Notes: generated from the letters alone by a model not told the origin. Shown: positions 11,499-64,000, numbered from the stretch's first letter. The stretch: DNA of 64,000 nucleotides from an uncultured Eubacteriales bacterium (GCA_964633715.1 CAZWHQ010000010.1:26263-90262), one strand, 5' to 3'. Translations and numbers: made by a program.

Positions 11499-11527
11499 TC
11501 TTGTGGATCTCCTTATAAATTGTGGAA

Positions 11528-12901: not shown

Positions 12902-12966
12902 TTACCTTCTCCTGATTTTACTCACTTGGATGTTAAAAACACTTTTTATTTAGACGCAGAAAAGAT

Positions 12967-16260: not shown

Positions 16261-16264
16261 TTTT

Positions 16265-18224: not shown

Positions 18225-19381
18225 GACTGTTCTCCAAAGGCATAAACTCGGCCATCTTCTGATCCAATAACAACGAGTCCTCCGGCCACAGCAGGACTTC
18301 CGATAATGGCTCCACCGATTTCATAGGACCAGATTTTTTCCCCATCTTTGAGATTCAAGATGTACAGCCTGCCGTCAATCGATCCGAAAATGACTTTATC
18401 GCTCGAAACAACAGGGGATCCGTCTATTTCATCCAAAGTCTGAAATTCCCACAACTTTTCACCTGAATTTCTGTCCACACAGTGCAGATAACCATCACGG
18501 GAGCCAATGATCACCCTGTCTTTCGTGACAGCCGGGGAAGAAAAAAATGGACCGGGATGGTTTTTATCCTCATATGTCCACACGATTTGTTCAGCGATAA
18601 GATCAATAGCCACCAATTGATTATCATAATGGCCAAGATAGGCCAAATTGTCAACAAGAGCGGCCGACCCGGGGATATAGGAACCCGCCCAAACTTCCCC
18701 TGTTTTTGTCCCATCAGAAACAGAGATAATATGAAGGATTTCATCACATCCACCAAAGATGACATGTGTGCCATCTGTGGATGGAGCACCATTGATAAAA
18801 TTTTCAGTTTCATATTCCCAGATGAGTTCTCCCGTGATTGAATTCAAACAATACATCCTATTGTCGTAGCTGCCTACGAGAATCCTTGCTTCTGGATTGT
18901 TTGGACTAATCACCCAATTGGCTGATCCATAAATAGAGCTGCCGCACTTATATCTCCAGAGCTCCTGCCCGGTGAGGGCATCCAAACAAAGGAATTCTCC
19001 ACTCAAATTTCCAATATAGACCGCATCTTGAAACAGAAGTGGCGAGGCTTCGATATCATCTTCTGTGTCAAAGGTCCATATCTGGCGGCCGGTGAGAAAA
19101 TCGAGTGAATAGACTTTTCCATCCGTAGATCCGATATAAACATTCCCGTTGCCGAGGACGGGAGACGAAATGATGTATGACTCTGTATTGAAGGACCAGA
19201 GAAGAGACAGCTCATCCGGGACTTGATCCTCTGCGATCCCGGTCAAGGCTGAATCCCCGCGAAAAATCGGCCAACTCACACTATCCACATCCAAAATCCT
19301 TTCCCCTACATCTTTTTTGGCACACGTGTACACCAGCAGAGGGAGGATCAAAAGAAAAAAAATATATTTAATCTTGCACAT
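18221..19381 (-). CDS. PQQ-like beta-propeller repeat protein, 386 aa, secreted; paralog 3.
   Basis: Signal peptide followed by repeated blade motifs with YxG and GxxDGxxY patterns. The N-terminal WPxWRGP motif of the other paralogs is replaced by WPIFRGD. Confidence 0.7.
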   Translation of the reverse strand: MCKIKYIFFLLILPLLVYTCAKKDVGERILDVDSVSWPIFRGDSALTGIAEDQVPDELSLLWSFNTESYIISSPVLGNGNVYIGSTDGKVYSLDFLTGRQIWTFDTEDDIEASPLLFQDAVYIGNLSGEFLCLDALTGQELWRYKCGSSIYGSANWVISPNNPEARILVGSYDNRMYCLNSITGELIWEYETENFINGAPSTDGTHVIFGGCDEILHIISVSDGTKTGEVWAGSYIPGSAALVDNLAYLGHYDNQLVAIDLIAEQIVWTYEDKNHPGPFFSSPAVTKDRVIIGSRDGYLHCVDRNSGEKLWEFQTLDEIDGSPVVSSDKVIFGSIDGRLYILNLKDGEKIWSYEIGGAIIGSPAVAGGLVVIGSEDGRVYAFGEQS

Positions 19382-19609
19382 AATCTTTTCCCTCTAAGAA
19401 AACATTTGAATCCTTATAAAATAAAAATATAAGCGTAAGGGTGTACAGTGAAAAAGGTGGTATGGAGGCTGAAGCGAGCATGGTTTCCGGTCGAAGACCG
19501 GAAGAGCGAAGCCGGAATCCAGCCGTTGTTCCTCGCTGGGGAAAAACGAGCGTGCCTTTAAGCTGTATTCCCTGAGCATTATTTTTTATTTTATGAGGTC
19601 TTAAATTTT

Positions 19610-23544: not shown

Positions 23545-23550
23545 GGGATT

Positions 23551-25263: not shown

Positions 25264-25267
25264 CCCA

Positions 25268-26623
25268 TCAAGCCCTAAACTGTTTGATTTTTTTCTCACC
25301 GGTTCCCAAAGAATCGGCCTGTTCCTGCGTGAGCAGGCCCAGACGCACCTGTTCATACGGACAGTATGAAAAGCACCGGCCACAGCTGAGACAGGAGCCC
25401 TTGTCCACGTCATATTTGAGCTGCCGTTTGCGGCTGAAGAGGCCGATAAACTTCAGACAGATGACGAAACCGATAAAGCCTCCAAGGATCCATCCCCCGG
25501 TTTTGAACTGCTTCTGGATCGCTTTGGCTTCACTAAATAGCTCCTCGGTCGGTTTCCCCGAAGTGCGGAAGGCTTTGGTTTCATCGGTCATTTCTGTGCG
25601 CTGTCCGGAATTTTCGAGTAGAATTTCCTCGGCAAGAGAGACCGTGGCGTGCTGACGCGAAAGAGGAATGTTGAGAAGAGACCCCACCCAACCGGTACCA
25701 AATACCAGAAGCGGCAGGAGAATGAAAACCAGGGCCAAGCGGCGGATGTCCACATCCTTTCCCTTGGAGGGAGGGCCCTCATCGGCTTTTTGGATGGCTC
25801 CAAAGGGACAGGATTCTTCACACAACCGGCAGTTGTTGCACTCATCGGGAGTGATCGATACATGCCGTTTCGACAGGCGGGACATCCAGCTCAAGAGAAC
25901 TCCATAGGGACAGAGGAACCGGCAGTAGGGTCTGGCAATGACCGTCCCCAAAACCAGCATGGACATCCCAAAAATCACCATATTAAAATCCGCACCGAAA
26001 CGGAAAAAACCGATAAAAGGATCGTACTGACAGATGATAAAACCTGTTCCTGTGACCGCAAACAGCACGGCCAACCCCAGGTAGATATAGGGCAGCAGTC
26101 CGAGCACATTTTCCAGGCCTATGGAAACTCGGACAGGTTTGAGAACGACAACGTCCTGAATGGCGCCGAGCGGACAGACCGCCGCACAAAAAGTCCGGCC
26201 GTAAAAAAGCGCCACAAAGAGCGGCAGGATAAAAAAGACGATGACAGATACAGGGATGGCATAGGCGGGATTAAACAACGCCAAACTCACATTCTGGATG
26301 GCCCCGATTGAACAGACACATCCTCTCCTGATAAAGCCAAAGTACACCAGAGAAAACACCATCAGAATAAATATGTTGCGCCGTGATCTCAACTTGTAGG
26401 CAAAATAGGTCGCCAAAAACAACGCGGCCGCCAAAACAAAAATATCGACATACTCCCATACCGTGGCCCGGGGTGAAGGAGAGAGCAGCTCAGGCCGGAC
26501 ATATCCCGATTCAAAATCGGGTTTGGGAAAACGCTCTTGAATCTGAGAGAGGCCGAGGAGAGGGAGAAGCAACAACATCGATCCAAGAAATACTTTCACT
26601 CTGAACTGTCGTCTATTTTTCAT
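25268..26623 (-). CDS. NapH/MauN-family membrane polyferredoxin (4Fe-4S binding integral membrane protein).
   Basis: Two membrane-embedded CxxxCP motifs, CAAVCPLG and CRFLCPYG, are present. Cytoplasmic 4Fe-4S motifs CNNCRLCEESCP and CLSCGRCFSYCP are present. Several TM helices. The start is placed at MKNRRQF, 26623. The track ORF extends to 26839 with a non-signal-like extension. Confidence 0.7.
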   Translation of the reverse strand: MKNRRQFRVKVFLGSMLLLLPLLGLSQIQERFPKPDFESGYVRPELLSPSPRATVWEYVDIFVLAAALFLATYFAYKLRSRRNIFILMVFSLVYFGFIRRGCVCSIGAIQNVSLALFNPAYAIPVSVIVFFILPLFVALFYGRTFCAAVCPLGAIQDVVVLKPVRVSIGLENVLGLLPYIYLGLAVLFAVTGTGFIICQYDPFIGFFRFGADFNMVIFGMSMLVLGTVIARPYCRFLCPYGVLLSWMSRLSKRHVSITPDECNNCRLCEESCPFGAIQKADEGPPSKGKDVDIRRLALVFILLPLLVFGTGWVGSLLNIPLSRQHATVSLAEEILLENSGQRTEMTDETKAFRTSGKPTEELFSEAKAIQKQFKTGGWILGGFIGFVICLKFIGLFSRKRQLKYDVDKGSCLSCGRCFSYCPYEQVRLGLLTQEQADSLGTGEKKIKQFRA

Positions 26624-50611: not shown

Positions 50612-52318
50612 TTACTCTTCAATTATCCTCAAATACTTATAAATGGGATACACGATGGAGTGTTTTTCAGCACCAAGATCTTTGAGGTAATCATTCAATA
50701 GATTCCAGCCGACGAACCCATCTCCGATTTGGGGTTCGAGGCAGTAAAAAGCCATATTGGCCAGAGGTTGGGCTAAATCGATTTGGAATGTGCCGGCAGG
50801 AAATTCCTTGCGCTCCGATTTAAAAAAGCCACCTTCCAGCTTGGTCATGTTATAACCACCTTTTCTTATGGGCAGCAACTTGTCGATGATGAATTCTTCG
50901 CCGCTAACGGTTATGGGCTTATCGAGAACCGTTATTTTAATATTGTGAATCCGCAGTTTTTCCAAGACAAATTCCATGTCAGCCGGTATCAGATACCCTC
51001 GGGGAACCATTGCTTCTTTAGTGCCAACCGGTTTGGTGACCAGCTCCACATCATGGATCAATTCCGGCGGTTCGTTTTCGATGTGTCTCTGCCGAACGCT
51101 GGTGCCTGGAATTATTTCTGATGGGATATTTTGATAGGCGTAAATATCAAATTTTCCGTAGGATTCGTAAATGCCTTCGACATAGTTTTTTAAATGACCA
51201 GTTTCGGCTTCGGTTTGAACCTTGTTCACCACCTCTTCATCTGCCTGGAGACAAACCTGCTGCATCTCTTCCCCGTGTTGGTAACTGTATTCCAACAGTT
51301 CCCGCATATAGACATACTGGCTGTAAATTTTCTTTTCGAATGATTCATACCCCGGTGTTTCCACCAAAATCGACATGCGGTTTCGCAGGCCATAACCGCT
51401 GACCATGAATTTCCCTTCCGTTGACCAGATGGAATTATCGTGAGTGAATTCTGTGGGAGGCCAGCCGCGGTCCAGACCGGCGTGAAAATGAATCTCGATG
51501 CCGCCGTTCTCTCGGGTCATATTCCTTAGGGCGGGAAATATTTTTTCAGTGACGTAGCCGCGCGGCCCCGGATGAGCTGTTGTCACATTGGACGCGGCCT
51601 GCACAATAGCATAGCCGTGCCTCGCTCCCCCCATGCGGTGAGTATCGTGAATAATTATGGGATCCCATGTATTAAATATATTCTGATACGCACCCTGCAT
51701 ATTGGTGGTTTCCAGTTTAATGGCATCACGATTGACATCATATCCCTGGGCATTTTGCCGAGTCCCGGATAGTTTAGGCAAACCATCGCTGACACTTAAT
51801 GTTTCACCGCCATCAAGATTAAAATTGGGACAACTCAAAATGATCAGATTATCCAGCCAGTAGTTTTTTTCTCCAAACAGGATATCCCGCATCAACATCA
51901 GCATGGCCTCCTTGCCCTCACATTCACTGGGATGAATGCCGCCCTGCAGATAAACAACCATCTTTCCAGAACGTTGAGCCTCTCGTGCCGATGTAATTCT
52001 GGGATTGGCCATAACAATGACCGGACAGCTTCTCCCCCGGTCGCTGACAAACATACTAAATACATGGACATTTTCACTCTTCCATTTGAGTGTAGTAAAA
52101 TAGTCCAATATATCTTGAGTGGTGGCTGTGCGGGCAAAACTGGTCTTTTCAACCGGTGTTCTAAGATTCTCCTCCCAGTCACCATTCCACCCCATCGGAA
52201 CTTCGCTGCCCCAGTAAATATTCTTCTCTTGAGCTTCGGCTAAGGGTGCCACCAAAAGACACACAACAAGCAAAACAAAACAAGCAAATGATTTTCTCAC
52301 TTTAATCTCCTTCAACAT
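50612..52318 (-). CDS. M14 family zinc carboxypeptidase, secreted; third M14 in the window.
   Basis: Signal peptide at MLKEIKVRKSFACFVLLVVCLLVAPLAEA, the preferred start at 52318. The track start at 52567 adds an unlikely 83 aa. M14-like blocks AMLMLMRDIL and NLDGGE are present. Confidence 0.7.
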   Translation of the reverse strand: MLKEIKVRKSFACFVLLVVCLLVAPLAEAQEKNIYWGSEVPMGWNGDWEENLRTPVEKTSFARTATTQDILDYFTTLKWKSENVHVFSMFVSDRGRSCPVIVMANPRITSAREAQRSGKMVVYLQGGIHPSECEGKEAMLMLMRDILFGEKNYWLDNLIILSCPNFNLDGGETLSVSDGLPKLSGTRQNAQGYDVNRDAIKLETTNMQGAYQNIFNTWDPIIIHDTHRMGGARHGYAIVQAASNVTTAHPGPRGYVTEKIFPALRNMTRENGGIEIHFHAGLDRGWPPTEFTHDNSIWSTEGKFMVSGYGLRNRMSILVETPGYESFEKKIYSQYVYMRELLEYSYQHGEEMQQVCLQADEEVVNKVQTEAETGHLKNYVEGIYESYGKFDIYAYQNIPSEIIPGTSVRQRHIENEPPELIHDVELVTKPVGTKEAMVPRGYLIPADMEFVLEKLRIHNIKITVLDKPITVSGEEFIIDKLLPIRKGGYNMTKLEGGFFKSERKEFPAGTFQIDLAQPLANMAFYCLEPQIGDGFVGWNLLNDYLKDLGAEKHSIVYPIYKYLRIIEE

Positions 52319-52429: not shown

Positions 52430-52458
52430 GGAATAAATAGGATCAACCTGTTGTCTAA
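52430..52458 (+). promoter_or_regulatory. Possible ECF-type autoregulated promoter GGAATA-N17-GTCTAA.
   Basis: The AAC-containing -35 ggaata is at 52430-52435. The -10 gtctaa is at 52453-52458. It lies immediately upstream of the sigma-factor reading frame. Speculative. Confidence 0.25.
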
Positions 52459-52574
52459 TTGAGTGTTGAAACAGAAGGCCAAAGATCCAAGAGACATTCG
52501 AGGAGTGGACACTGAACGAACGGGAACTGCTCAACAAAGCAAGGAAGGGGGACCATACCGCCTTCAAGGAAATA

Positions 52575-53057
52575 GTGCTAAAAAATGAAAATCAGGTGGC
52601 AGCAACGGTGATTGGGATGCTGGGACACTGCACAGAGGCCGAAGATATCGGTCAGGAGACATTTATTAGATTTTATAAGTCATTGGACAAATTTAGAGGA
52701 GAATCCAGCATCAGCACGTATCTGATACGCATCGCCATAAATCTTTCTCTGAACGAAATCAAACGACGCCAGCGCCGCCGCAAACATATTTCTGATAATT
52801 TAGAAGATGGGATGGACAACATTCCAGGGAAAACTGTTTCAAAGAATAGGAGTGAAACAAGAGAGATTGTCAATCAGGCCATTCAAAAATTAGAGCCAAA
52901 ATTCCGTTCTGTACTCGTTTTACGACTCATCCTGGGCTACACCTCGCAGGAAACTGCAAAACTTCTAAAGCTGCCAATGGGAACGGTTCTTTCCAGGCTG
53001 ACCCGGGCACAGATGAAACTTAAAGATATATTGACTCCATCTTATGGGGGAGAATAA
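52575..53057 (+). CDS. ECF-family RNA polymerase sigma factor (sigma-70 regions 2 and 4).
   Basis: Region 2 DIGQETFIRFYKSLDKF and region 4 HTH TSQETAKLLKLPMGTVLSRL are present. The track start is the GTG at 52575. Conserved region 2.1 sequence (EEWTLNERELLNKARKGDHTAFKEIV) continues in frame upstream to a stop at 52467, but I see no canonical start codon there. Confidence 0.8.
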   Translation: MLKNENQVAATVIGMLGHCTEAEDIGQETFIRFYKSLDKFRGESSISTYLIRIAINLSLNEIKRRQRRRKHISDNLEDGMDNIPGKTVSKNRSETREIVNQAIQKLEPKFRSVLVLRLILGYTSQETAKLLKLPMGTVLSRLTRAQMKLKDILTPSYGGE

Positions 53058-53489
53058 ATGAAGACATCGGGGAAATCTTACAAAAAAGTCCTCAAGCTTC
53101 TCTACAGGTCTTTTGATACCGAACTAAGCAAAAAGAAAATTTTGCGACTGGAAAAAGCGCTCAATGAATTAAAAGATCTTAGAGTTGAAAAAGGGCTTAT
53201 TCAATCCAGGCGACAGGCTGTTGTAGACAGTGCCAAAAGAGCCTTTAGACCTTATTTTGCCGACCGGGTGATGGCCCATGTTGCCGCAATCGGAGATAAA
53301 AAGGAACCACAAGAGTCTTTCTATGACGCTCTGATGTTTGGATTCAAACGCCTGGCTCTTGTCGGAGCCCTGGTTATGATTATTTTGCTATTTTTCAATG
53401 TTTTTCAAGGGCGAATTATTCCTGTGAATGAAGTTTTTTTTGCTTCAGATTTTACACTCGAAGAGATTTTAAATCTGCCGATTCTTTAG
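53058..53489 (+). CDS. Putative membrane-anchored anti-sigma factor, 143 aa.
   Basis: Its ATG overlaps the sigma-factor stop (TAAATG). It has a single TM segment LVGALVMIILLFFNVF. Position and topology fit an anti-sigma factor. No strong motif. Confidence 0.45.
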   Translation: MKTSGKSYKKVLKLLYRSFDTELSKKKILRLEKALNELKDLRVEKGLIQSRRQAVVDSAKRAFRPYFADRVMAHVAAIGDKKEPQESFYDALMFGFKRLALVGALVMIILLFFNVFQGRIIPVNEVFFASDFTLEEILNLPIL

Positions 53490-53499
53490 GGAGAGAGAA

Positions 53500-54150
53500 A
53501 TGAATGTTAAGACAAAAACATATTTAATCATTATTTTTACACTGATTACTGGAATCGTCATCGGCGCATTGATTAACAGAGCCCTTCTGCAGGATCGCGT
53601 CCAGCGTGTCTTTTCGATGCGGAGTCCAAATGTTCTGACTCAATCCTACCTGGAGATCCTCAACCCCGATCCCGAACAGCGAGAACAAATCAAAGAGATT
53701 CTGGAGAGGAACGGCCAGGTTATGGATGACATTCGCTCAAAATCCCGCGAGGACCTGGAATCGGCCATGACTGCGATGATGGCCGAACTGGAATCTGTCC
53801 TCACCGCGGAACAGATCGAGAAGCTCAAAGAAAGATCCTCTCGAGGCCGCATGCCCTTCGGCAGGCCATTTGAAGAAGTTGAACTTGCCTTTCTTTCCTC
53901 AGAACTGGAGCTTACAGACGAGCAAGCTTCAAAACTGGCAACGATCCTTGAAGAATTCAGAATGCAGCCTCCGGACAAAAAGATCCCTGGAAGACCTGAT
54001 GAAATGAGGACAAATTTCAGGGGGCGAATGGATAAAAGAGAAGAGGAAATAAAAAAGATACTGAACGATGAGCAGAAACAAAAGTACGAGGAGCTCATAA
54101 AAGAACGCCGGAAAAAACCTCCGGAGGAGTTTCGATTCTTTCCCTACTGA
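53500..54150 (+). CDS. CpxP/Spy/ZraP-family periplasmic protein (LTxxQ motif) with a Glu/Arg/Lys-rich tail.
   Basis: N-terminal anchor or signal. The LTAEQIEKL and LTDEQASKL repeats are the LTxxQ motifs of the Spy/CpxP family. Confidence 0.55.
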   Translation: MNVKTKTYLIIIFTLITGIVIGALINRALLQDRVQRVFSMRSPNVLTQSYLEILNPDPEQREQIKEILERNGQVMDDIRSKSREDLESAMTAMMAELESVLTAEQIEKLKERSSRGRMPFGRPFEEVELAFLSSELELTDEQASKLATILEEFRMQPPDKKIPGRPDEMRTNFRGRMDKREEEIKKILNDEQKQKYEELIKERRKKPPEEFRFFPY

Positions 54151-54238
54151 ATTAATCAGGGAATAAAATCCCGAATCTGATTGTCTAACCTTTGTGAAAC
54201 CATTACATTCGTGTTCCTATCTCCTTCTCTGTTCCTTT

Positions 54239-54276
54239 AGGGCCGGGATTTTCCTCCTCCACCCCGGCCTTTTTTT
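54239..54276 (+). terminator. Rho-independent terminator after the sigma / anti-sigma / CpxP-like operon.
   Basis: GC stem ggccggg (54241-54247) and cccggcc (54263-54269) with a 15-nt loop, followed by T7 at 54270-54276. Confidence 0.6.
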
Positions 54277-54474
54277 CACCTCTTCAAAATGAAAGAAATC
54301 AAAGTCAGTTTTGAGACGATACTCAATCTGATCTTTATTATCACGGTTTTGCTCCTCCTTTTTCTTTAGCCGGCCTCACAATTTCTTCAACTCATAGGCT
54401 CCATTGGAATAAACTCCACGGTTCAGGTGTCTAACCAATGTTATGAAGAAACACATTCAGAAAGGAGCAGAAAA

Positions 54475-55758
54475 ATGAAAAAGAAAGTCGTATTCGGGTC
54501 AATTCTTTTACTGGTAGCAACTAGCGTTGTTTTGGGATTTGCACTTTTTCGCAACGATAAAAGCGACATTTCCCTTTTTAAGACCGAGGTCATTGAACGA
54601 GGCAATGTTGAAAACGAGGTTATCACAACAGGAACACTCAATCCTGTAATGCAGGTCGATGTCGGCAGCCAGGTTTCCGGGATCATTAAAGAAATTTATG
54701 TAGATTTTAATTCTCTTGTCACAAAAGATCAGGTTCTCGCAATATTGGATCAATCCGTTTTTTTAACAAAACTGAACCAGAACAAGGCCAACTTTCAAAG
54801 CGCTGAAGCATCTCTGGAGAAAGCCCAAATCACTCTCGAAAATCTAGAGAAAAAACACGACCGGTATGCTGAACTTTTTAAGAAAGATCTCGTGTCTTAC
54901 GAAGAAATGGAAACCATAGAAACGCAGTTCTTCAATGCAAAGGCCGATCTCAAATCCACAGAAGCCAAGCTCTCCCAAGCGCAGTCACAGCTTGAAGCAA
55001 GCCAGGTCGATCTCACATACACGATCATTAAATCACCTGTCGATGGAGTGGTCATCGATAGAAAAGTTAACGTGGGACAGACGGTAGCGGCAAGCATGCA
55101 GACCCCCGTGCTCTTTCGTATTGCTCAGGACTTAAGCCAGATGCAGGTAGAATGCAGCATCGATGAGGCTGACATCGGGATCGTCAGGGAAGGACAGGAT
55201 GTCCGATTCTCTGTGGATGCCTATCCCGATGAAAATTTTATCGGAACAGTCAGTCAGGTTAGATATTCACCTGTCATCACTCAGAATGTTGTCACATACA
55301 CAACACTTGTTGCTGTAGAAAATCCAAATCTCAAACTCCTGCCTGGAATGACAGCTACTGTGTCCATTATAGTCGCTCAAGCCGATGACGTTCTGCTCAT
55401 TCCGAATGCAGCCCTTCGGTACTCTCCCCAGTTCGATGAAAAGGATTTGGCGCAGATTAAGGAAGATCGAAGGAAAGAAGGCTCTGAATCGGATATGAGT
55501 CCCTCTAAAAAGAGGAATATTGAAGGTCCAAGTCAGAACAGAGAGGAAAGTCAACGTATATGGATTTTGGATGAAAACAACAATTTGAAACCAATCCCCG
55601 TTAAAACCGGCGTAACCGATAACTCTTACTCCGAATTGATAGAAGGACATCTGGAAGAAGGGCAGTCTATCATCACAGGAGAAGAAGTCACAAATGCTAA
55701 AACTCCAAACTCAAATTCCAGCAGCTCCATGAACCAGATGATGAGGATGATGCGCTAG
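54475..55758 (+). CDS. Efflux transporter periplasmic adaptor subunit (HlyD / MacA family).
   Basis: Start MKKKVVFG with AAAGGAG 8 nt upstream (the track start at 54427 is unlikely). It has a signal anchor, a coiled-coil hairpin region, and the lipoyl/beta-barrel blocks VSGIIKEIYVDFNSLVTKDQVL and YTIIKSPVDGVVIDRKVNVGQTV. Confidence 0.8.
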   Translation: MKKKVVFGSILLLVATSVVLGFALFRNDKSDISLFKTEVIERGNVENEVITTGTLNPVMQVDVGSQVSGIIKEIYVDFNSLVTKDQVLAILDQSVFLTKLNQNKANFQSAEASLEKAQITLENLEKKHDRYAELFKKDLVSYEEMETIETQFFNAKADLKSTEAKLSQAQSQLEASQVDLTYTIIKSPVDGVVIDRKVNVGQTVAASMQTPVLFRIAQDLSQMQVECSIDEADIGIVREGQDVRFSVDAYPDENFIGTVSQVRYSPVITQNVVTYTTLVAVENPNLKLLPGMTATVSIIVAQADDVLLIPNAALRYSPQFDEKDLAQIKEDRRKEGSESDMSPSKKRNIEGPSQNREESQRIWILDENNNLKPIPVKTGVTDNSYSELIEGHLEEGQSIITGEEVTNAKTPNSNSSSSMNQMMRMMR

Positions 55759-55769
55759 AAGGAAAGACA

Positions 55770-56990
55770 ATGAACATCACAAAAACAGCACATGTATCGC
55801 TCCATGCCCTATCACGGAATAAAATGCGTTCTTTCCTAACTGCCCTGGGAATCATCATTGGTGTCGGTGCTGTGATCGCCATGGTCAGTATTGGTCAGGG
55901 GGCAAAAGAGCAAGTGGAAAAAACATTCAGCTCGTTGGGAACAAATGTTCTTACTATCCGTCCTGGAAGTTCGTCTTTTCGAGGTGTTTCCGGAGGAACA
56001 GGAACAACCTACTCCCTAACAAACGCGGATGCCCAAGCTATCCATGATGAGTGTGAGGCCGTATTGGCCGTCTCTCCCAGTGTGTCAACACGCACACAAG
56101 TTATATACGGAAACAAAAACTGGAACACATCTATTCAAGGCACCAGTGAAGATTATCCTCTTATTAAAAATTGGGACATTTCCGAAGGCATATTCTTTGA
56201 CGAATCCATGGTTAAATCCGGACAAAAAGTTTGTGTCCTAGGGCAGGATGTCAGTAAGAGCCTTTTTGAAAACTCAGATCCCATTGGGCAGATAATCCGT
56301 ATAAAAAACATCCCTTTTAAAGTTCTTGGAGTTCTGGAGCAAAAAGGCGAGGCCGGGGGCTGGGGCAGTCAGGACGACATGATTCTTATCCCCTACACAA
56401 CAGCTCAGCGCCGACTTCTCGGCACTGTGGATACCCTTCAATCCATAGAGCTATCAGCTATCTCAGCCGAGCTCACAAATGATGCCCAAAAACAAATTGA
56501 AGAACTCCTCAGGATCAGGCACAGAATCGCCCCTGGTTCTGAAGATGATTTTAATGTTCGGAATATGACAGATATCGCAGAAGGGGCCACAGAATCTACG
56601 AAGGTTCTTACTCTCCTTCTCGGAGGAGTGGCTTCAGTTTCACTTCTCGTTGGAGGAATCGGGATCATGAATATCATGCTGGTGTCTGTCACAGAGCGGA
56701 TTAGGGAGATAGGCATCCGGATGTCTGTAGGCGCCAAAGAAAAGGATATCCTGATGCAATTTATGGCTGAAGCTATCGTTCTGAGCGTATGTGGAGGTTT
56801 CATTGGCATTATTGTAGGCCTATCTGGATCAAAACTCATTTCACAGATAGCCGGATGGCCAACCATTATTTCTATCGGAGCCATGGTTCTGGCTTTTTGC
56901 TTTTCAGCAGCTGTAGGGATCTTTTTCGGTTTTTACCCGGCCCGCAAAGCTTCAAGGCTCGATCCAATTGTAGCCTTGAAATACGAATAA
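55770..56990 (+). CDS. MacB-type ABC transporter permease (FtsX family) without an ATPase domain.
   Basis: Has an N-terminal TM, a large periplasmic domain, and a C-terminal three-TM FtsX domain with the block TERIREIGIRMSVGAKEKDI. Confidence 0.85.
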   Translation: MNITKTAHVSLHALSRNKMRSFLTALGIIIGVGAVIAMVSIGQGAKEQVEKTFSSLGTNVLTIRPGSSSFRGVSGGTGTTYSLTNADAQAIHDECEAVLAVSPSVSTRTQVIYGNKNWNTSIQGTSEDYPLIKNWDISEGIFFDESMVKSGQKVCVLGQDVSKSLFENSDPIGQIIRIKNIPFKVLGVLEQKGEAGGWGSQDDMILIPYTTAQRRLLGTVDTLQSIELSAISAELTNDAQKQIEELLRIRHRIAPGSEDDFNVRNMTDIAEGATESTKVLTLLLGGVASVSLLVGGIGIMNIMLVSVTERIREIGIRMSVGAKEKDILMQFMAEAIVLSVCGGFIGIIVGLSGSKLISQIAGWPTIISIGAMVLAFCFSAAVGIFFGFYPARKASRLDPIVALKYE

Positions 56991-57055
56991 AAAAAGAAGT
57001 GGATGAAGGAATAGAGGAGGAAAATAAAATCTAATTTATTGTAGGAGGACTGTAC

Positions 57056-59536
57056 ATGAGAATTGCAGCACTGACTCTTTTTTCTCTTTTTCTTCTTTTT
57101 TGTCTTAATCCGGCCTATGCCCAGACTGGAAAAATCCAAGGAACCGTTACATTGGAGGACGGAGAAGGACTGCCCGGAGTGGCCATCACCATTGAGGGGA
57201 CAAAAATGGCCACTTTTACTGATACAAACGGATTCTTCTCTCTTACAGGAATAACCCAGGGAGAGGTCACGCTTGTGGCTGAGTTGGAAGGCTTTGAAAA
57301 GATGAGGCGGACAGTTTTAGTCCAAAATGCAACAACAATCGTTGTCAATTTCACAGTAGAAATGCTTAAAATTTCAGAAGAGGCCGTTGTTGTGGCTGAA
57401 AAGCCGCTGCTCAGCAATACCGAAGAAATCAGCGAAACTATCCTGACGCCCTCTCAAATTTCCACTCTTCCAAGTCTGGGGGAAAAGGACATCTTCCGGG
57501 CCTTTCAGCTTTTACCTGGGATCAGTGGAAGCAATGAAGCATCATCTGGGCTCTATGTCAGAGGTGGGACTCCTGACCAAAACTTGATTCTGTATGACGG
57601 TTTTACGATATACCATGTCGATCACCTCTTCGGCTATTTCAGCGCTTTTAATATGGAGGCAGTAGAAGCGGTCCGGCTGAACAAAGGCGGATATTCAGCC
57701 AAATACGGAGGACGCCTATCGAGTATCGTGGAGCTTTACGGAAAGACCGGAAGCCCCACGGAATTCCACTTCGGCGCTGGACTCAGCATGCTCAGCGTAA
57801 ACGGTTACGCCGAAATCCCTCTTTTTAAGAAAGGATCGCTAGTGATTGCAGCACGCAGATCGTTTCAGAGCCCACTCTACAACAACATAGCCGACATGTT
57901 CGAAAATGAGCAGGGAGGAATGATGGCCAGGCAGCGTCCCGGCGGAGGACGTTTCGGTTCCACGTATGAATCCGATCCCTCTTCCTATTTCTATGATCTG
58001 AATGCAAAAGCTGAAATTCTTATCTCGTCCAAGGACACTTTCTCTCTGAGTTTCTACAACGGGAAAGATGACCTGGATAATTCCCGCACTATGACCACAC
58101 CTTCGATGATGGCGGATAGAGGAATGACCATGGAAGGAGAGGTGGTTGACGTTACAGAATGGGGAAACACAGGATTGAGCTTCCAGTGGGAAAGGAGCTG
58201 GAACCAATCGTTCTACAGCCAGTTTACAGCGGCCTATTCAAATTACTTTAATAACCGTGACAGAACCAACTCCACGACCATTTCTTTTGATCCTGATTCA
58301 GGTATAGAACCACCCCCATGGATGAACACAGACCAACCCCGAAGTTTTGAACGCGGTTCGATCGAGGATAACGATCTCAGCGATCTTACCTTTCGTCTGG
58401 ATAACAGTCTCGATATCGCCTCAAATAACCGTTTGGAATTCGGGATCCAGGTGACAGCAAACCACGTTACCTACGATTATGAACTAGACCAGTTTCAGGA
58501 AGAAAACGAAAACATAACAGAGAACCTTCAGCCCGGTGGCAGAAGACAACTCGTGGGCATCCTGGACCGAGAAGATGAAGGAACGCTATACGCTTTTTAC
58601 CTGCAGGACAGATGGACTCTTTCTGACAAACTGACTATTACACCAGGACTGCGTGTCACTTATTTTGATTTGACAGAAGACTGGTATTACGAGCCAAGAT
58701 TCTCCTTCAACCTTAAGCTGACAGATACATTCCGGTTCAAGGGGGCTTGGGGAAATTATTATCAATTCGCCAAAAAAGTGGTTAGAGAGGATATGATGCA
58801 GAGCAACAGGGAGTTTTGGGTTTTATCGGATAAAGACAACATTCCTGTGGGTGCGGCGACTCATCATATCGCCGGCGTGAGTTATGAAACCGATGAGTTC
58901 CTGATCGACATCGAGGGATATTATAAAGATCTTACTGGGCTGTCAGAGTTCGCCCTCAGGTTTACTCCAGTGTCAACCGAGGAAGACTACAATCAGTTCT
59001 TTTATGAAGGAACTGGAATCGCCAAAGGCATCGAGCTGCTGCTCCAGAAAAAATTCGGGGATTATACAGGATGGCTGGCCTACACATTGGGTCAAGTGAA
59101 GTATGAATTCCCAGATCTAGAAGATAGACCTTTCCCGGCTCTCCAGGACCAAACCCATGAATTCAAAATGGTCAACAGCTTTACACTAGGGAGCTGGACT
59201 CTGGCAGGAACATGGATTTATGCGACTGGAAAACCGTATACAGAACCTGAAGGAATCGAAAGCACAGAAATATTTTCCGGCCGGACGATAGACCGAGTGG
59301 TTATGGGAGATAAAAACGGTGCCAGGCTGCCTGCATACCATCGCATGGACCTGTCCGCCACTCTCGACTTCGAGCTGTGGGCTGGAGAGGCACAACTGGG
59401 TTTAACCGTTTTTAATGCCTATGACCGGAAGAACGTCTGGTATAAAGAATTCGATGTCATCGAAGGCGAAATAATCGAGAACAATTTTAACCTCATGGGT
59501 TTGACATTCAACCTGTTTTTCAATATTAAATTTTAA
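57056..59536 (+). CDS. TonB-dependent outer-membrane receptor with an N-terminal carboxypeptidase-regulatory-like domain.
   Basis: Signal peptide. The CarbopepD_reg block is QTGKIQGTVTLEDGEGLPGVAITIEG...TDTNGFFSL. The plug motif is YVRGGTPDQNLILYDGFTIY. The C-terminus ends in an aromatic residue (NIKF), typical of outer-membrane beta-barrels. Confidence 0.75.
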   Translation: MRIAALTLFSLFLLFCLNPAYAQTGKIQGTVTLEDGEGLPGVAITIEGTKMATFTDTNGFFSLTGITQGEVTLVAELEGFEKMRRTVLVQNATTIVVNFTVEMLKISEEAVVVAEKPLLSNTEEISETILTPSQISTLPSLGEKDIFRAFQLLPGISGSNEASSGLYVRGGTPDQNLILYDGFTIYHVDHLFGYFSAFNMEAVEAVRLNKGGYSAKYGGRLSSIVELYGKTGSPTEFHFGAGLSMLSVNGYAEIPLFKKGSLVIAARRSFQSPLYNNIADMFENEQGGMMARQRPGGGRFGSTYESDPSSYFYDLNAKAEILISSKDTFSLSFYNGKDDLDNSRTMTTPSMMADRGMTMEGEVVDVTEWGNTGLSFQWERSWNQSFYSQFTAAYSNYFNNRDRTNSTTISFDPDSGIEPPPWMNTDQPRSFERGSIEDNDLSDLTFRLDNSLDIASNNRLEFGIQVTANHVTYDYELDQFQEENENITENLQPGGRRQLVGILDREDEGTLYAFYLQDRWTLSDKLTITPGLRVTYFDLTEDWYYEPRFSFNLKLTDTFRFKGAWGNYYQFAKKVVREDMMQSNREFWVLSDKDNIPVGAATHHIAGVSYETDEFLIDIEGYYKDLTGLSEFALRFTPVSTEEDYNQFFYEGTGIAKGIELLLQKKFGDYTGWLAYTLGQVKYEFPDLEDRPFPALQDQTHEFKMVNSFTLGSWTLAGTWIYATGKPYTEPEGIESTEIFSGRTIDRVVMGDKNGARLPAYHRMDLSATLDFELWAGEAQLGLTVFNAYDRKNVWYKEFDVIEGEIIENNFNLMGLTFNLFFNIKF

Positions 59537-59548
59537 GGAGAAGAAATC

Positions 59549-60406
59549 ATGAAGAAAGAATGTAGAAAGAATATCTTTTGCGTAAATCCCAGGGCCATTA
59601 TCGGGATATGTGTCTTAGGTTTGATCGCTCTTTTTTTCACATCCTGCGCGAGTTTGGAATTGCAAAGTTCTTGGAAAAACAGCGACATTTCAATCGACGG
59701 AAAGAGCGATGACTGGGTGGGACATTTAATGTATGTGGACAACCAGAATATTTCCATTGGAGTGATGAACGACACAAACTATCTCTACGCCTGTGTGGTC
59801 GCTGAAGACCAAATTTTGATCAGCAAGATTATGAGACAGGGAATGACCCTGTGGTTCAATCCGGAAGGTGGAAAGAACAAATTTTTTGGCATCAAATACC
59901 CAAAAGGAAGAGAGGACATGCCACAAGAGGACAGGGAAAACATGAGGCCAGGCACTAAGGCCGATCCTCAAAATCGGAGGCGGGAACTCTTGGCCATCTC
60001 TAACGAAGTCGAAATCTTGCAGGAAAGAAAAGTCCCTATCCAAAGGACCACAGATAACTTAAAAGGGATCGAAGTGTTCTTAAACAGATCGACTGGATTG
60101 ATTGTGTACGAAATTAAAGTTCCGCTTCAAACTGATACCGAGCATCCTTTCGCCATCAATGCTCAAGAAGGAACCGAGATTGGCATCGGAATTGAAGTGC
60201 CGAAAATGACCCTAACCATGAACAGGCCTGCAGGAGGTATGGGCGGAGGTGGCATGGGTGGCCGAGGCGGAGGCATGGGCGGTCGAGGCGGTGGTATGGG
60301 AGGTGGAGGTATGGGCGGCCGCAGTGGAGGCATGACCGGACAACGGACGAACATGCAGAAAAGCATCAAAATCTGGGCTGTAGTCGGGCTGGCCACAGCA
60401 AAATAA
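59549..60406 (+). CDS. Lipoprotein with a C-terminal Gly-Met-rich GGMGG tandem-repeat tail.
   Basis: Lipobox-like LFFTSC. The C-terminal stretch is GGMGGGGMGGRGGGMGGRGGGMGGGGMGGRSGGM. The globular N-terminal domain is unrecognised. Confidence 0.55.
   Translation: MKKECRKNIFCVNPRAIIGICVLGLIALFFTSCASLELQSSWKNSDISIDGKSDDWVGHLMYVDNQNISIGVMNDTNYLYACVVAEDQILISKIMRQGMTLWFNPEGGKNKFFGIKYPKGREDMPQEDRENMRPGTKADPQNRRRELLAISNEVEILQERKVPIQRTTDNLKGIEVFLNRSTGLIVYEIKVPLQTDTEHPFAINAQEGTEIGIGIEVPKMTLTMNRPAGGMGGGGMGGRGGGMGGRGGGMGGGGMGGRSGGMTGQRTNMQKSIKIWAVVGLATAK
60229..60336 (+). repeat. In-frame coding tandem repeat encoding GGMGG(R/G) units.
   Basis: Read directly: ggtatgggcggaggtggc atgggtggccgaggcggaggc atgggcggtcgaggcggtggt atgggaggtggaggt atgggcggccgc. 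The minus-strand Pro-rich ORF 60163..60396 is its shadow. Confidence 0.7.
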
Positions 60407-60478: not shown

Positions 60479-63400
60479 TTGGCTAATTTTTACTTTGTCG
60501 GACGGATCGCCTTTTACGAAGCCAGGCTGTTGATGCGGTCATGGGGATTCCGTTTGTTCGCAGGTCTTGTTTTGATTATCCTCGCTATCGTCAATATCGC
60601 CATTGCCACACCCGCCTTTTACACGCCTTATTTCATGAGATCTCTCTCAGGCTTCTTGCCCTTAAACAGCCTTAAACTCTTTAATGTCTTCCAGGGAATC
60701 ATCGTCGCCTTTATGGCCACGGAATTTTTCAAGCGAGACAGACGGCATGACTCCGTCCAAGTGGTCTTTGCCCGTTCCTTTACCAATGTAGAATATTATC
60801 TAGGAAAAGCCCTGGGGATTTTTTCGGTGTTTCTTCTGCTCAATCTGGCCGTGCTGTTGTCAACTATTGCTATACACATCTTCTTTTCAAATACGCCTTT
60901 TATGCTGCAGCCCTATCTTTTGTACACACTGCTGATCTGTCTGCCCACGCTTATATTTATGATCGGCCTGTCTTTTTTTCTGTCCTCGCTCCTTAAAAGC
61001 CAGGTCGTGGTTTTTCTGGTGCTTCTGGCCTATTCCTTCCTTGTCCTGATCTTTTTGGGGACACCTTTTTTTGGCCTGTTGGATTCTTATGCGTTTTACC
61101 TGCCCCTTATGTGGTCGGACTTTATCGGTTTAGGGAACATCAGCGCTGTCCTGCTCATCCGCCTATCCTATGTGTTTCTGGGCTTAAGTTTTATTTTTGT
61201 CTCCCCCCTGCTTTTCAAACGGCTGAGGCAGTCAGCACTTTCAAATATCGTTGCGGGATCCCTCTCCGCCCTGTTTATGATTTTGGCTCTTGTTTTCGGC
61301 TTCAAATCCATGAGCGGTTTTTACGCCGACAGAGAATTCCGGCAGCAGCTTAAAGCTTTAAACCAGGAAATCGTGGGAATGCCGGTTTTAACGGTTTCGG
61401 ATTACAACATTGAGCTGGAACATTTAGGGGAAACAATCAATGTCTCTGTGGATATGAAGATGACAAATAACACACCGGCATCTATGGATTCTTTTTGGTT
61501 AACGCTAAATCCCGGACTTGAGGTTCAATCGATAACCTGGAAAGGCAATCCGCTTAAATTCAGCCAGGATAAACATCTCATCCACATCACTCCTTCCTCT
61601 ACAGTGGAACCTGGCCATTCACTCGACCTGAACATAGAATATACAGGCCAAGTCGATGAACGCTATTGTTTCCTCGATATCGACAGCAGCCGCTACGAAA
61701 ACCGGTTCCGTCTCTGGCTCTACGATATCCCCAAACACTATGCCCTGGTCACATCCGACTATGTCCACCTCACGCCGGAATCCGGCTGGTATCCAGTACC
61801 CGGGCTCTCCACAGGAAAAGCCTTCCCTGCTCCAGCCGCACCTCAATTCTCTACATATTCCCTTTCAGTTTTAACCTCTGAGGGGCAAACCGTCATTTCC
61901 CAAGGAATTCGTGAAACGCGATTTGAAAACGGACAGACCTGGCACTCATTCAAATCCGAAACAAAACTGCCGCAGATTTCACTCACGATCGGTCTCTACG
62001 AAAAAAAAGAAATCCAGGTCGATGACATCCATTACTCTGTCTACGTTCATCCCGGACATGATTATTTCACACCTTTTCTGGATGAACTGGGCGAAAATCT
62101 GCCGAACATAATACGCGAACAAAAGGATGAATACGAGGTGGTTCTCGGTTTGGACTATCCCTACAAACAGATCTCTCTTGTGGAAGTGCCGATCCACATC
62201 TACAGCTATCAGCGGCTCTGGACCGTGGCCTATGAAACCGTACAGCCCCAACTTGTTTTTCTCCCGGAAATGGGAACCTTCTGCAGCAATGCAGACTTCG
62301 AGGGCCAGGCCCGCAACTGGGAGAAATGGGGAAAATTCAAGAAAGGCGGCCCTGTCCCTCTCTCAGAAGTCCAGTCCTACTTCCTCGTCCAATTTATCAG
62401 ATCGAATCTGCTGAATGAAGGAAGTGAACAGCTGGGCTACATCAAAGGAGAGGGAATTGTAATCACCTTTCAGGCAGATATCGAACCGCAGTTCGAAGTC
62501 TTCCCGAACTTTGTCTCTTACTCCACATATTTTTCCTCGAGTGACTGGCCCGTGCTTAATGTGGCCTTCGAATCCTATATAAGGGAACGCTTTTCCCCGC
62601 CCCAGATAATGGGTAAACGAGGCGGCTTGGGTATCTCCAGAGAAGAGGAGACCAACCTGGATTTGAAGGATTTATCCCTGTCCGCGATGCTGGAGAATTC
62701 AGAAATTGAGGCAGCCGCCATCAATGACGCTCTCCATGCCAAGGGAAAAATGCTCCTGACTTTACTCGAAGCTCAAAGTGCAGATGTGGATTTTAATTTT
62801 TGGATGACTGATTTTCTAAAACAAAACAGATTCCGCACGATCTCTCAACAGGATTTAAGTGATTTCCTGTCGACATATTTTGAACTCAATCTTCCCGAAA
62901 TTATCGATCCCTGGTACACGGACAGCCAAATCCCCGGCTATATTTTCGGGGATGTCGAGAGCTATGATGTCATCGACAGAGAAAGAACCTGGACTCAGAT
63001 CAATTTCAAGGTCGCCAATCCAACCGCTGTGGATGGTGTCATAAAAATTGATTTGCGCTACCGATCGAATAAAAATTCAAAGAACGTCCAGGGGGGCCAA
63101 AGCGACTACTCCAAAGCCCTTCTTGTTCCTGCCGAGACAACGATTGACTTGGGGATATCACTTGACCAACCGCCAGCCTTGATGACCATCGACACCTTTG
63201 TGTCTCAAAATATTCCTGCACTCATCAACGTGCCTTTTTTGGGGAAACAATCTCAACGTGAGGGCGAGCCGTATGACATGGAAACGACAAAGCCCTATGA
63301 TCCTTTGGATTTTATCAGCCGCAGTGAAACCATCGTCGATAATGAAGATGAGGGATTTAAAATCCTCAGTACAACTAAGAAGAGCTGGCTCAGCCGCACA

Positions 63401-63934
63401 CTAAAGAACTTGTTCGGAACAAGAGAAGAGGAATCTCCATTCACGCTTATGAACGTGTACGATCCCCCCGCCTTCTGGTCGCTCTCGGCCAACCAGCAGT
63501 TTTACGGACAAATCATCCGTTCGGCCTATTTAAAAAAAGCCGGTGATGGAGACGATTCTGTAGCCTGGAATGTGGAACTCGAGGAAGGGGGCAGCTATGA
63601 CATTTTCTTCTATAACAGCATCCCCCTCAGGATGCTTAAGGAGATTGAGATGAGTCGGGCCGGTAAAAATACGGGGAAATCAAATTCTACTTCAGGGATA
63701 AGAGGACGATTCAATCGCGGTCCCGGAAAAAGGACCTTTAAAATACCTCATCTATATGGGACGGATGAAGTGGAGATCGATCTTTTGAGTGCCGAGCAGG
63801 GTTGGAACTTTATTGGATCATTCCAGCTGGATGCCGGGCCAAACAAAGTTGAACAGACCGATAAAAACGACACTCTCTATGTTTTGGCCGATGCCATAAA
63901 ATGGGTGAAAAGAAAGGAAACGGAAGAAATTTGA
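60479..63934 (+). CDS. ABC-2-type permease domain (about 270 aa, 6 TM) fused to an extracytoplasmic domain of about 880 aa. 1151 aa in total.
   Basis: The N-terminal hydrophobic helices have the ABC-2 family topology. The rest is soluble-looking. I could not find HEXXH or any other catalytic motif. TTG start. Confidence 0.55.
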   Translation: MANFYFVGRIAFYEARLLMRSWGFRLFAGLVLIILAIVNIAIATPAFYTPYFMRSLSGFLPLNSLKLFNVFQGIIVAFMATEFFKRDRRHDSVQVVFARSFTNVEYYLGKALGIFSVFLLLNLAVLLSTIAIHIFFSNTPFMLQPYLLYTLLICLPTLIFMIGLSFFLSSLLKSQVVVFLVLLAYSFLVLIFLGTPFFGLLDSYAFYLPLMWSDFIGLGNISAVLLIRLSYVFLGLSFIFVSPLLFKRLRQSALSNIVAGSLSALFMILALVFGFKSMSGFYADREFRQQLKALNQEIVGMPVLTVSDYNIELEHLGETINVSVDMKMTNNTPASMDSFWLTLNPGLEVQSITWKGNPLKFSQDKHLIHITPSSTVEPGHSLDLNIEYTGQVDERYCFLDIDSSRYENRFRLWLYDIPKHYALVTSDYVHLTPESGWYPVPGLSTGKAFPAPAAPQFSTYSLSVLTSEGQTVISQGIRETRFENGQTWHSFKSETKLPQISLTIGLYEKKEIQVDDIHYSVYVHPGHDYFTPFLDELGENLPNIIREQKDEYEVVLGLDYPYKQISLVEVPIHIYSYQRLWTVAYETVQPQLVFLPEMGTFCSNADFEGQARNWEKWGKFKKGGPVPLSEVQSYFLVQFIRSNLLNEGSEQLGYIKGEGIVITFQADIEPQFEVFPNFVSYSTYFSSSDWPVLNVAFESYIRERFSPPQIMGKRGGLGISREEETNLDLKDLSLSAMLENSEIEAAAINDALHAKGKMLLTLLEAQSADVDFNFWMTDFLKQNRFRTISQQDLSDFLSTYFELNLPEIIDPWYTDSQIPGYIFGDVESYDVIDRERTWTQINFKVANPTAVDGVIKIDLRYRSNKNSKNVQGGQSDYSKALLVPAETTIDLGISLDQPPALMTIDTFVSQNIPALINVPFLGKQSQREGEPYDMETTKPYDPLDFISRSETIVDNEDEGFKILSTTKKSWLSRTLKNLFGTREEESPFTLMNVYDPPAFWSLSANQQFYGQIIRSAYLKKAGDGDDSVAWNVELEEGGSYDIFFYNSIPLRMLKEIEMSRAGKNTGKSNSTSGIRGRFNRGPGKRTFKIPHLYGTDEVEIDLLSAEQGWNFIGSFQLDAGPNKVEQTDKNDTLYVLADAIKWVKRKETEEI

Positions 63935-64000
63935 AAAAAGACTGTCTAAATAAATAAACCCGATCTCCAAACTGAAAAGGGAGAATTGAACATGGATATA

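Follow-up and report, generated by a model that had tools for sequence, protein, structure and literature searches.

To our knowledge, envelope-stress signalling is known almost solely from Proteobacteria and Firmicutes. The 64,000-nt stretch of DNA considered here (GCA_964633715.1, CAZWHQ010000010.1:26263-90262; hereafter the window, with positions counted from its first letter) carries, from 52430 onward, a gene cluster headed by an extracytoplasmic function (ECF) sigma factor. Judged from its sequence and that of its relatives, this cluster is probably a self-contained, autoregulated ECF regulon with which an uncultivated Aminicenantes-type bacterium responds to cell-envelope stress, a reading to which a probability of about 0.7 is assigned. 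Several described systems stand close to it. In Escherichia coli, Sigma-E, the single-pass anti-sigma RseA and the periplasmic component RseB are encoded in one autoregulated operon, and the Sigma-E-dependent small RNAs RybB, MicA and MicL form a repressing arm of the response (PMC9438474). Sigma factors of groups ECF281 and ECF290 (formerly ECF20) are followed by an anti-sigma gene at position +1 and a gene for a PF13801 protein at position +2 (PMC7826278). In the Cpx response, the small RNA CpxQ derives from the 3' untranslated region (UTR) of cpxP, and the protein and RNA arms are induced together (PMC9438474).

The present locus shares the outline of these systems and departs from each of them in detail. 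Like Sigma-E/RseA/RseB, it combines in one operon an autoregulated ECF sigma factor, a single-pass anti-sigma candidate and a periplasmic third component, and its predicted regulon likewise consists of factors for the biogenesis of periplasm and outer membrane, among them BamA in some relatives. However, the anti-sigma candidate is of the RsiW/zf-HC2 type rather than RseA, the third gene encodes an LTXXQ protein instead of RseB, the promoter reads GGAAT-N18-GTCTAA, MacAB, a CarboxypepD_reg barrel and a lipoprotein termed GM belong to the regulon, and the hosts belong to Aminicenantes, Calditrichia and KSB1. The succession of ECF sigma, anti-sigma (+1) and PF13801/LTXXQ-type protein (+2) is that of ECF281/ECF290 and of CnrYXH, and CnrX of Cupriavidus metallidurans is also a membrane-anchored sensor. 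In contrast to ECF281, the anti-sigma here is zf-HC2-like without the Cys/His of a Zn finger, and in contrast to ECF290, Pfam gave no RskA match for it; compared with CnrYXH, the putative sensor lacks conserved metal ligands and there is no cnr/czc-type RND pump. The resemblance to Cpx lies in an LTXXQ-family gene with an RNA of ~60-80 nt at its 3' end that ends in the gene's terminator. Control would nevertheless rest with an ECF sigma factor and not with CpxAR, and the candidate RNA has its own promoter past the stop codon in six genomes, whereas CpxQ is released by RNase E cleavage; no sequence resemblance to CpxQ was seen, the candidate has no Rfam match, and its seed is anti-Shine-Dalgarno-like. 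Lastly, a MacA-type adaptor and a permease with a MacB periplasmic core and an FtsX four-helix bundle recall MacAB-TolC, although in the window no nucleotide-binding domain (NBD) is fused or adjacent, no TolC-like gene was identified in the cluster and a TonB-type barrel comes next.

The case for a regulon begins with the promoter. The motif GGAATA-N17-GTCTAA, which the earlier note on this DNA had read upstream of the sigma gene and expected before macA (54475) and GM (59549), has three mismatch-free matches in the window, at 52430, 54160 and 54406, against about 0.008 exact matches expected by chance in 2 x 64 kb for 12 specified bases (arithmetic); four more matches carry two mismatches, which is chance level. 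The extended consensus is GGAATAAA-N13-kkTGTCTAA. P1 (52430..52458, +; GGAATAAA-N15-TGTCTAA) precedes the sigma gene itself, the bipartite -35/-10 arrangement characteristic of ECF-type autoregulation; P2 (54160..54188, +) lies 10 nt past the LTXXQ stop codon; and P3 (54406..54434, +) lies upstream of macA. The expectation was thus borne out exactly for macA and not for GM, which starts 12 nt past the barrel gene and is operonic in the window; in other genomes the motif stands directly upstream of GM. A GGAAT...TCTAA string in the gap between macB and the barrel gene (57007-57033) was discarded as a promoter, its spacer being 2 nt short and its score below the matrix threshold. A general scan for consensus promoters and terminators was uninformative (21 found versus 15.5 expected and 14 versus 12.5, respectively).

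Relatives were collected as 53 genome loci anchored on GM and 80 metagenome loci anchored on the sigma factor, the latter at least 51% identical to it (loci are cited below by number). The closest named genomes are Candidatus Aminicenantaceae metagenome-assembled genomes, and the more distant ones come from Calditrichia, KSB1, TA06, Zixibacteria, Marinimicrobia and others. The motif GGAAT-N18-GTCTAA precedes 69 of 85 sigma orthologues. A weight matrix trained solely on these sigma-upstream sites of relatives gave 143 matches in 3.17 Mb of loci, compared with 2.3 in shuffled sequence. Half of the sites (71) precede sigma-cluster ORFs (open reading frames), and most of the others precede GM (13), periplasmic LTXXQ genes (10+3; in the ten, the gene is usually located ahead of GM), macA (9) or the barrel gene (6), with further sites before other LTXXQ-like genes and a pair encoding a lipoprotein and an outer-membrane protein (OMP). 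Among the window matches listed, P2 has the highest matrix score (32.4); P3 scores 25.3. P3 and its 5' UTR resemble the barrel-gene promoter of L002 and L055, P3 is also present in L134 and L135, and an ECF promoter lies directly upstream of barrel orthologues in L002, L055, L011, L070 and L101. This supports the proposal that the ECF sigma factor governs these genes as a single unit, the motif occurring before macA, GM and barrel orthologues in dozens of genomes.

Over 100 loci, belonging to Aminicenantes, Calditrichia and KSB1 or to metagenome contigs without assignment, have this promoter and these gene families together. The trio of sigma, anti-sigma and LTXXQ genes is near-universal in the 80 sigma-anchored loci and recurs beside GM in the GM-anchored ones. 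In L134 and L135, contained in samples SRR24923470 and JGI 3300033143 respectively, the order is epimerase, M14 peptidase, sigma, anti-sigma, LTXXQ, macA, ATPase-less macB, barrel, GM, large membrane protein and ABC ATPase, and the window has the whole cluster and all three promoters in common with both loci, which argues that the regulon is real and conserved. According to the Pfam matches of 77 proteins encoded in operons behind matrix sites, its content includes LTXXQ (13) and Metal_resist (10; both models can match one protein), MacA-type adaptors (10), ABC_tran (8), CarboxypepD_reg barrels (6-7), MacB (5) and BamA (2). Because a matrix built from sigma sites finds GM, LTXXQ, macA and barrel genes, the three promoters and the gene set are read as a conserved, autoregulated ECF regulon, the use of each promoter being predicted from its sequence.

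An ORF survey of the 64-kb window recovered all the genes that the earlier note had listed, on the plus strand and in the order it gave, and every long ORF from 52.4 kb to the window end is on that strand; domains were assigned to the window proteins with Pfam and NCBIfam. The sigma factor (52512..53057, +) matches Sigma70_r2 with 52.8 bits, Sigma70_r4_2 with 38 bits and TIGR02937 with 93.2 bits against a cut-off of 42.9, and with regions 2 and 4 only and a length of 181 aa it conforms to the ECF group (group 4; ~180 aa). Its start had been placed too far downstream, at GTG 52575. The 21 conserved residues at the N-terminus lie in frame ahead of it and are read from CTG 52512, with no ATG, GTG or TTG available to them, and the CTG is preceded by a Shine-Dalgarno (SD) sequence (GAGGAG-N6). 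CTG and SD occur at the homologous position in L005, L006, L011, L054, L055, L134 and L135, with an in-frame stop four codons upstream of the CTG in L005 and L011, and more distant relatives (Calditrichia, KSB1) have GTG at the start position. Gene callers mis-start the gene because its start codon is CTG; in L134 and L135 they begin it later and give 154 aa. On this comparison, translation of the sigma factor is predicted to start at CTG 52512. Divergent from the sigma gene lies an M14-type carboxypeptidase gene (50612-52300, -) without its own ECF promoter, whose position is kept in L055 and L134 at 88-90% identity.

The following gene (53058..53489, +) encodes a 143-aa single-pass protein with its transmembrane (TM) segment at residues 99-117 and a short periplasmic tail. 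Its description as an anti-sigma factor finds no support in the window protein, which has no Pfam match of its own, and is sustained by the orthologues. The protein occupies the +1 position after sigma in ~60 loci, and the orthologues share the pattern LLYRSFD..L...E...L..AL..S.ELR.E, the TM segment and a periplasmic tail of ~25 residues. The best PDB match of the family profile is the RsiW anti-sigma domain (E 0.047); zf-HC2 is matched by 13 of 41 orthologues (best 2.2e-5), and one of the 41 shows a weak RseA_N match. The H-x3-C-x2-C zinc ligands are absent, and the window protein and most orthologues have no Cys, so that this would be a zinc-less anti-sigma domain at best. On position, topology and weak homology, the protein is accepted as the putative anti-sigma factor.

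The third gene (53500..54150, +) encodes a 216-aa Spy/CpxP-like periplasmic protein tethered by an N-terminal TM anchor. It matches LTXXQ (PF07813) with 36.8 bits against a cut-off of 24.3, and the family profile has Spy as its best PDB match (E 1.6e-4); among 32 orthologues, 19 match LTXXQ and 11 match Metal_resist (PF13801). A shared promoter motif therefore exists and LTXXQ membership holds, the two points on which the earlier note had staked its reading. The protein is a candidate sensor or modulator of the switch.

Downstream of P3, macA starts at an ATG with an AAGGAG SD and encodes a 427-aa periplasmic adaptor (54475..55758, +; TIGR01730, 171 bits against a cut-off of 94.9; HlyD_D23). 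The next gene (55770..56990, +) encodes a 406-aa permease with four TM segments (MacB_PCD, 187 bits; FtsX, 73 bits), that is, the periplasmic core domain and FtsX four-TM bundle of MacB. Its alignment to the MacB model covers only positions 259-646 of 648, which lie past the NBD, and the ATPase part is therefore missing. The statement that no cognate ATPase is adjacent is correct: the permease has no ABC_tran domain, and no ORF with such a domain occurs from 52.4 to 64 kb. L134 and L135 have the same macA-macB pair without an ATPase, as do Calditrichia-type loci (L025, L102, L106), and more distant regulon members have the order macA-ATPase-macB. Lacking an adjacent ATPase, the permease must use one encoded elsewhere. 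The sole ABC ATPase ORF found in the window (16265-16954) had been suggested as the donor, a suggestion that does not hold, since directly beside this gene lies that of its own permease (1097 aa, with two stretches matching FtsX), so that it is not an orphan; at 40-45% identity to the ATPases of the macA-ATPase-macB relatives, it is of the right kind though already paired. The ATPase and permease genes belong to a cluster (10161-25413, -) that also encodes a glycosyltransferase and four PQQ/BamB-like beta-propeller proteins, adjoins NADH-dehydrogenase-like Fe-S flavoproteins and is unrelated to the ECF cluster.

MacAB is a frequent but dispensable member of the regulon, because in the close relatives L055 and L002 the same promoter drives barrel and GM without macAB between them; for the same reason, 'efflux island', the term used earlier, gives MacAB too much weight. 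The last operon gene within the window is probably the one at 60479..63934 (+). It encodes a 1151-aa membrane protein that combines six TM segments at its N-terminus with a large extracytoplasmic part and ends in Golvesin_C. The former label of this protein, 'ABC-2 fusion', is not supported, as it has neither an ABC-2 Pfam match nor HEXXH. The order GM, large membrane protein and ABC ATPase is conserved in L001, L134, L135, L136 and L137, and in L001, L136 and L137 a second large paralogue is present, the two large proteins flanking the ATPase. The ATPase beside relatives of the 1151-aa protein (loci include L134:10925-15432 and L135:9152-13502) has ~310 aa and is 29-31% identical to the one at 16265-16954; by analogy, the corresponding partner in this genome very likely lies just past position 64000.

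The 826-aa barrel (57056..59536, +) matches Plug (42.3 bits) and TonB_dep_Rec_b-barrel (68.9 bits) and begins with a CarboxypepD_reg domain; its domain matches are those of a TonB-dependent transporter, which consists of a plug and a 22-strand barrel. Sequence searches of the barrel and of the 1151-aa protein against the PDB returned no matches.

The 285-aa GM protein (59549..60406, +) had been described as a Gly-Met-repeat lipoprotein, and this description is accurate: it has GGMGGR repeats, and its signal peptide ends in a Cys that most members conserve, which makes its assignment as a lipoprotein reasonable. None of more than 800 homologues has a Pfam domain, and a profile search retrieved 5,842 cluster representatives at E<=1e-3. 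The AlphaFold model (mean confidence score, pLDDT, 77) has a confident beta-sandwich, the fold of DOMON/CBM9 domains, a disordered insert at residues 223-268 and a final conserved strand. GM is thus a DOMON/CBM9-like family of about 5,800 clusters without a Pfam model. It is only 6-18% identical in sequence to described domains of this type (EbdC-gamma, NxrC, CBM9 of xylanase 10A), from which it differs by its lipoprotein signal and by a Gly/Met/Arg-rich insert of 25-55 residues. Family-wide, the insert contains 40% Gly, 11% Arg, 9% Met, 3% Asp, 0.9% His and 0% Cys, with a median of 6 Met per protein. EbdC and cellobiose dehydrogenase possess a haem-ligand pair, whereas GM has no conserved one. 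A haem-binding role was rejected, there being no invariant Met or His; the invariant residues are mostly Asp, Gly, Trp and Tyr, and Lys is only near-invariant.

The C-terminal GGM tails of GroEL are disordered (G)nM repeats that face the folding chamber and aid substrate folding (PMC4379175). The GM insert is alike in being built of disordered (G)nM repeats, a likeness of composition and not of homology; unlike the GroEL tails, it belongs to a periplasmic or outer-membrane protein, is interspersed with Arg and forms an internal loop. GM is followed at 7 nt by BamA (POTRA + Omp85) behind an ECF promoter in two loci (L003:9926-13186 and L004:9890-13138), and BamA also lies near GM in L011, L026 and L031. 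As a working idea, GM may be an envelope protein induced by stress, with a GGM/RGG loop that makes contact with non-native proteins. In more distant phyla, GM occurs without the ECF promoter near a HAMP-HisKA histidine kinase (L021, L026, L027, L046, L048-L050, L052), and some of these loci also carry an OmpR-type response regulator, as if a two-component system had there taken over the control of GM. The link between GM and the ECF sigma factor is therefore not universal; in Acidobacteriota, Bacteroidota and Desulfobacterales, GM often adjoins a histidine kinase/response regulator pair instead.

Between the LTXXQ gene and macA lies a short element that the earlier note overlooked, together with the promoter copy at 54160. 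P2 is followed by ~45 nt of CU-rich sequence (CCUAUCUCCUUCUCUGUUCCUUU), a hairpin with a 15-nt loop (AUUUUCCUCCUCCAC) and a U-run. The strong terminator reported at this place is confirmed, with a hairpin at 54240-54269 and a U-run to 54276 (-15 to -17 kcal/mol); the consensus terminator scan missed it because of the 15-nt loop. The hairpin, which doubles as the terminator of the sigma operon, has the loop motif UCCUCCUCC, and the single strand is CU-rich and anti-SD-like. The element as a whole (54195..54278, +; ~80 nt, its 5' end estimated from the promoter position) folds with -17.1 kcal/mol (z -2.07), and no conserved ORF lies between P2 and the terminator; an ORF starting at GTG 54194 and running through the terminator was dismissed as a gene, not being conserved in L002. 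P2 and the element recur in L002, L134 and L135 with a conserved promoter spacer, CU-rich strand, C-rich-loop hairpin and U-run (mean column identity 77%), whereas the adjoining LTXXQ protein is only 59-64% identical in L134 and L135. Analogous promoter-bearing units of different sequence occupy the same place in L101 and L070, so that such a unit is kept in six genomes, and promoter-less versions follow the LTXXQ stop codon in L005, L011, L060, L065 and L076. A strict pattern (anti-SD-like motif and perfect GC stem with C-rich loop) had 14 matches on both strands of 3.2 Mb, of which eight fall inside ORFs of GC-rich loci; the six intergenic ones all lie directly after an LTXXQ gene. With its own promoter, a terminator, no conserved ORF and a conserved single-stranded seed, the element has the features of a sigma-dependent small RNA and is proposed as a candidate, one that might also be obtained by processing of the operon 3' end.

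Past the terminator and before P3, a small hydrophobic ORF of 26 aa (MKEIKVSFETILNLIFIITVLLLLFL; 54289..54369, +) seems to be an optional component. Homologues occupy the same position behind an ECF promoter in L011 and L076; the homologue in L134, read by eye from the DNA, has no canonical start codon, and the ORF is absent in L135. A search for further copies with a hidden Markov model recovered only the three known ones. The ORF could encode a small membrane protein of the regulon.

From these parts, a mechanism may be proposed. The sigma factor would be translated weakly from its CTG start and held at the inner membrane by the single-pass, RsiW-like, zinc-less anti-sigma. The LTXXQ protein, tethered in the periplasm beside the anti-sigma, might sense or modulate in the manner of CpxP, RseB or CnrX, and its signal would most likely be misfolded or mislocalised envelope proteins and not metal ions. 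Freed sigma would amplify its own operon and induce the MacA/MacB extrusion module, the outer-membrane barrel and the GM lipoprotein, with transcription from P3 running through macA, macB, barrel and GM and probably on into the gene for the 1151-aa protein. The flexible GGM/RGG-type loop of GM is suggested to bind non-native envelope proteins. The sigma-induced small RNA would pair through its CUCCUU/UCCUCCUCC stretches with SD regions and lower the synthesis of envelope proteins, constituting a non-coding arm comparable to RybB, MicA and MicL for Sigma-E and to CpxQ for Cpx.

The earlier note had described the cluster as responsive to envelope stress or metals. The first part agrees with the LTXXQ proteins, MacAB, outer-membrane barrels and BamA of the regulon, and the second is not supported, in view of the lack of conserved ligands and of any metal pump among the most frequent regulon families. 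In its fullest form, the metal explanation would make the cluster an efflux or sequestration island for Cu, Ag or Zn, in which a CnrX/ZraP-like LTXXQ sensor frees sigma, MacAB and the barrel export or exclude metal, and GM binds Cu(I)/Ag(I). It draws on the Metal_resist matches (11 of 32 LTXXQ orthologues, 10 of 77 regulon proteins), on ECF281 and ECF290, which carry PF13801 at +2 and are considered heavy-metal-stress related (PMC7826278), and on sub-threshold matches of MacA to CzcB/CusB models. The median of 6 Met in the GM insert also agrees with it, as does the Gly/Met-rich tail of ZraP. The metal ligands of CnrX and ZraP are His residues, and this is where the explanation falters: conserved His ligands are missing from the periplasmic domain of the LTXXQ protein, His being unconserved (0 to 11 residues among orthologues, with none in the proteins of the window and L055), Cys is absent from the window protein and 39 of 40 orthologues, and no invariant or near-invariant (>=90%) column of the alignment is His or Cys. 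Met-rich Cu(I)/Ag(I)-binding proteins (CopA/PcoA loops, CusF, CopK) usually combine their Met clusters with His or Asp. The Met-rich repeats, earlier regarded as Cu(I)/Ag(I) ligands, sit in an insert whose lack of Cys, scarce His and Asp and abundance of Arg make a poor cation site. No RND pump, P-type ATPase, multicopper oxidase or CusF-type protein is among the 25 most frequent Pfam families of the regulon, and the presence of BamA and several Spy-like proteins rather suggests protein-folding stress. A metal-responsive island is accordingly considered improbable. Far less credible still is an uptake circuit of the FecI/FecR/FecA type, in which the barrel would be the sensor-transducer and sigma would answer substrate binding at the outer membrane. 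An ECF sigma factor clustered with a TonB-dependent receptor is the classic signature of such circuits, and the barrel is a direct promoter target, yet the domain content largely refutes this explanation: Pfam found no FecR in the anti-sigma and no STN in the barrel, whose N-terminus is CarboxypepD_reg, and the anti-sigma resembles RsiW/zf-HC2 and extends no more than ~25 residues into the periplasm. Moreover, many sigma-anchored loci have no barrel.

A further alternative concerns the middle promoter, where P2 and the hairpin may amount to a superfluous or decaying copy of the promoter ahead of the sigma-operon terminator, or to a short leader whose read-through supplies the small ORF and macA. 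This is a possibility of some weight, if doubtful: the stem covaries modestly (three of seven pairs), L005, L011, L060 and L076 carry the CU-rich hairpin without a recognisable promoter, and the window, L011 and L076 have a small ORF past the terminator. Against decay stand the matrix score of P2, which tops those listed for the window, the conservation of its spacer in L002, L134 and L135, and the independent promoter sites at the same place in L101 and L070; a plain terminator would need neither the conserved CU-rich strand nor the C-rich loop. In L135, P2 and the element are kept without the small ORF and P3 lies within ~25 nt of the terminator, so P2 there serves neither an ORF nor macA but only the short unit. 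The envelope-stress interpretation, with the small RNA as part of it, is itself weakened at several points. The hairpin is needed as the sigma-operon terminator in any case, CU-rich 3' regions could serve otherwise, and P2 is missing from the closely related L055. For the anti-sigma of the window by itself there is no significant match, and its family matches RsiW only marginally; the same 11 of 32 LTXXQ orthologues also fit a heavy-metal resistance model (PF13801), which leaves a metal signal some probability. GM relatives in Bacteroidota, Acidobacteriota and Desulfobacterales lack the ECF promoter. What GM does is guessed from its composition and its neighbours, and this is where the argument is weakest. 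That the promoters are used, where the RNA begins and what induces the system are all inferred.

A broader and tentative interpretation is that an undescribed envelope-stress design may operate in several uncultivated phyla, joining a zinc-less anti-sigma to a tethered Spy-like sensor, with anti-SD-mimic small RNAs (CUCCUU/CCUCCUUU) expressed from a dedicated promoter at the LTXXQ 3' end and GM acting as a periplasmic holdase or as an accessory of the BAM complex for unfolded OMPs. For Aminicenantes, Calditrichia and KSB1, lineages with few or no cultured members, the analysis supplies a sequence-defined regulon with a promoter matrix that recovers its own targets, and defines a sigma/anti-sigma/LTXXQ switch with a candidate regulatory RNA. 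It also gives functional context to GM, whose family names, if any, are generic only. Three additions to a known type of circuit merit follow-up, namely the candidate small RNA, the initiation of sigma at CTG and the GM family. If true, this would be a second independent case, after cpxP/CpxQ, of an LTXXQ stress gene with a small RNA at its 3' end, and would suggest that the protein-plus-RNA design is recurrent. The ATPase-less MacA-MacB pair, found in at least three genomes, offers a concrete case on the sharing of ATPases by MacB-type permeases.

Some observations concern the window at large and other units behind the ECF promoter. An Rfam search of the window matched no known RNA family, and no tRNAs were found in it. 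A second non-coding unit of ~190 nt with an ECF promoter occurs in L003:18800-19050(-) and L011:1850-2098(-); its 3' ~85 nt are highly conserved and C-rich (..UCUCUUUUGCCGGyUGGGGAGA..CCCCCUUU.GCUGAC.ACAGCCGGC-UUUU), and it was looked for in the window and is absent there. Directly behind ECF promoters, a His-rich repeat family with ..W-G-[IL]-E/D ends is encoded in four loci (L089:11512-12255, L094:3586-4722, L128:5968-6921 and L132:11622-12737), and the member scanned, that of L132, carries a type IX secretion C-terminal sorting domain.

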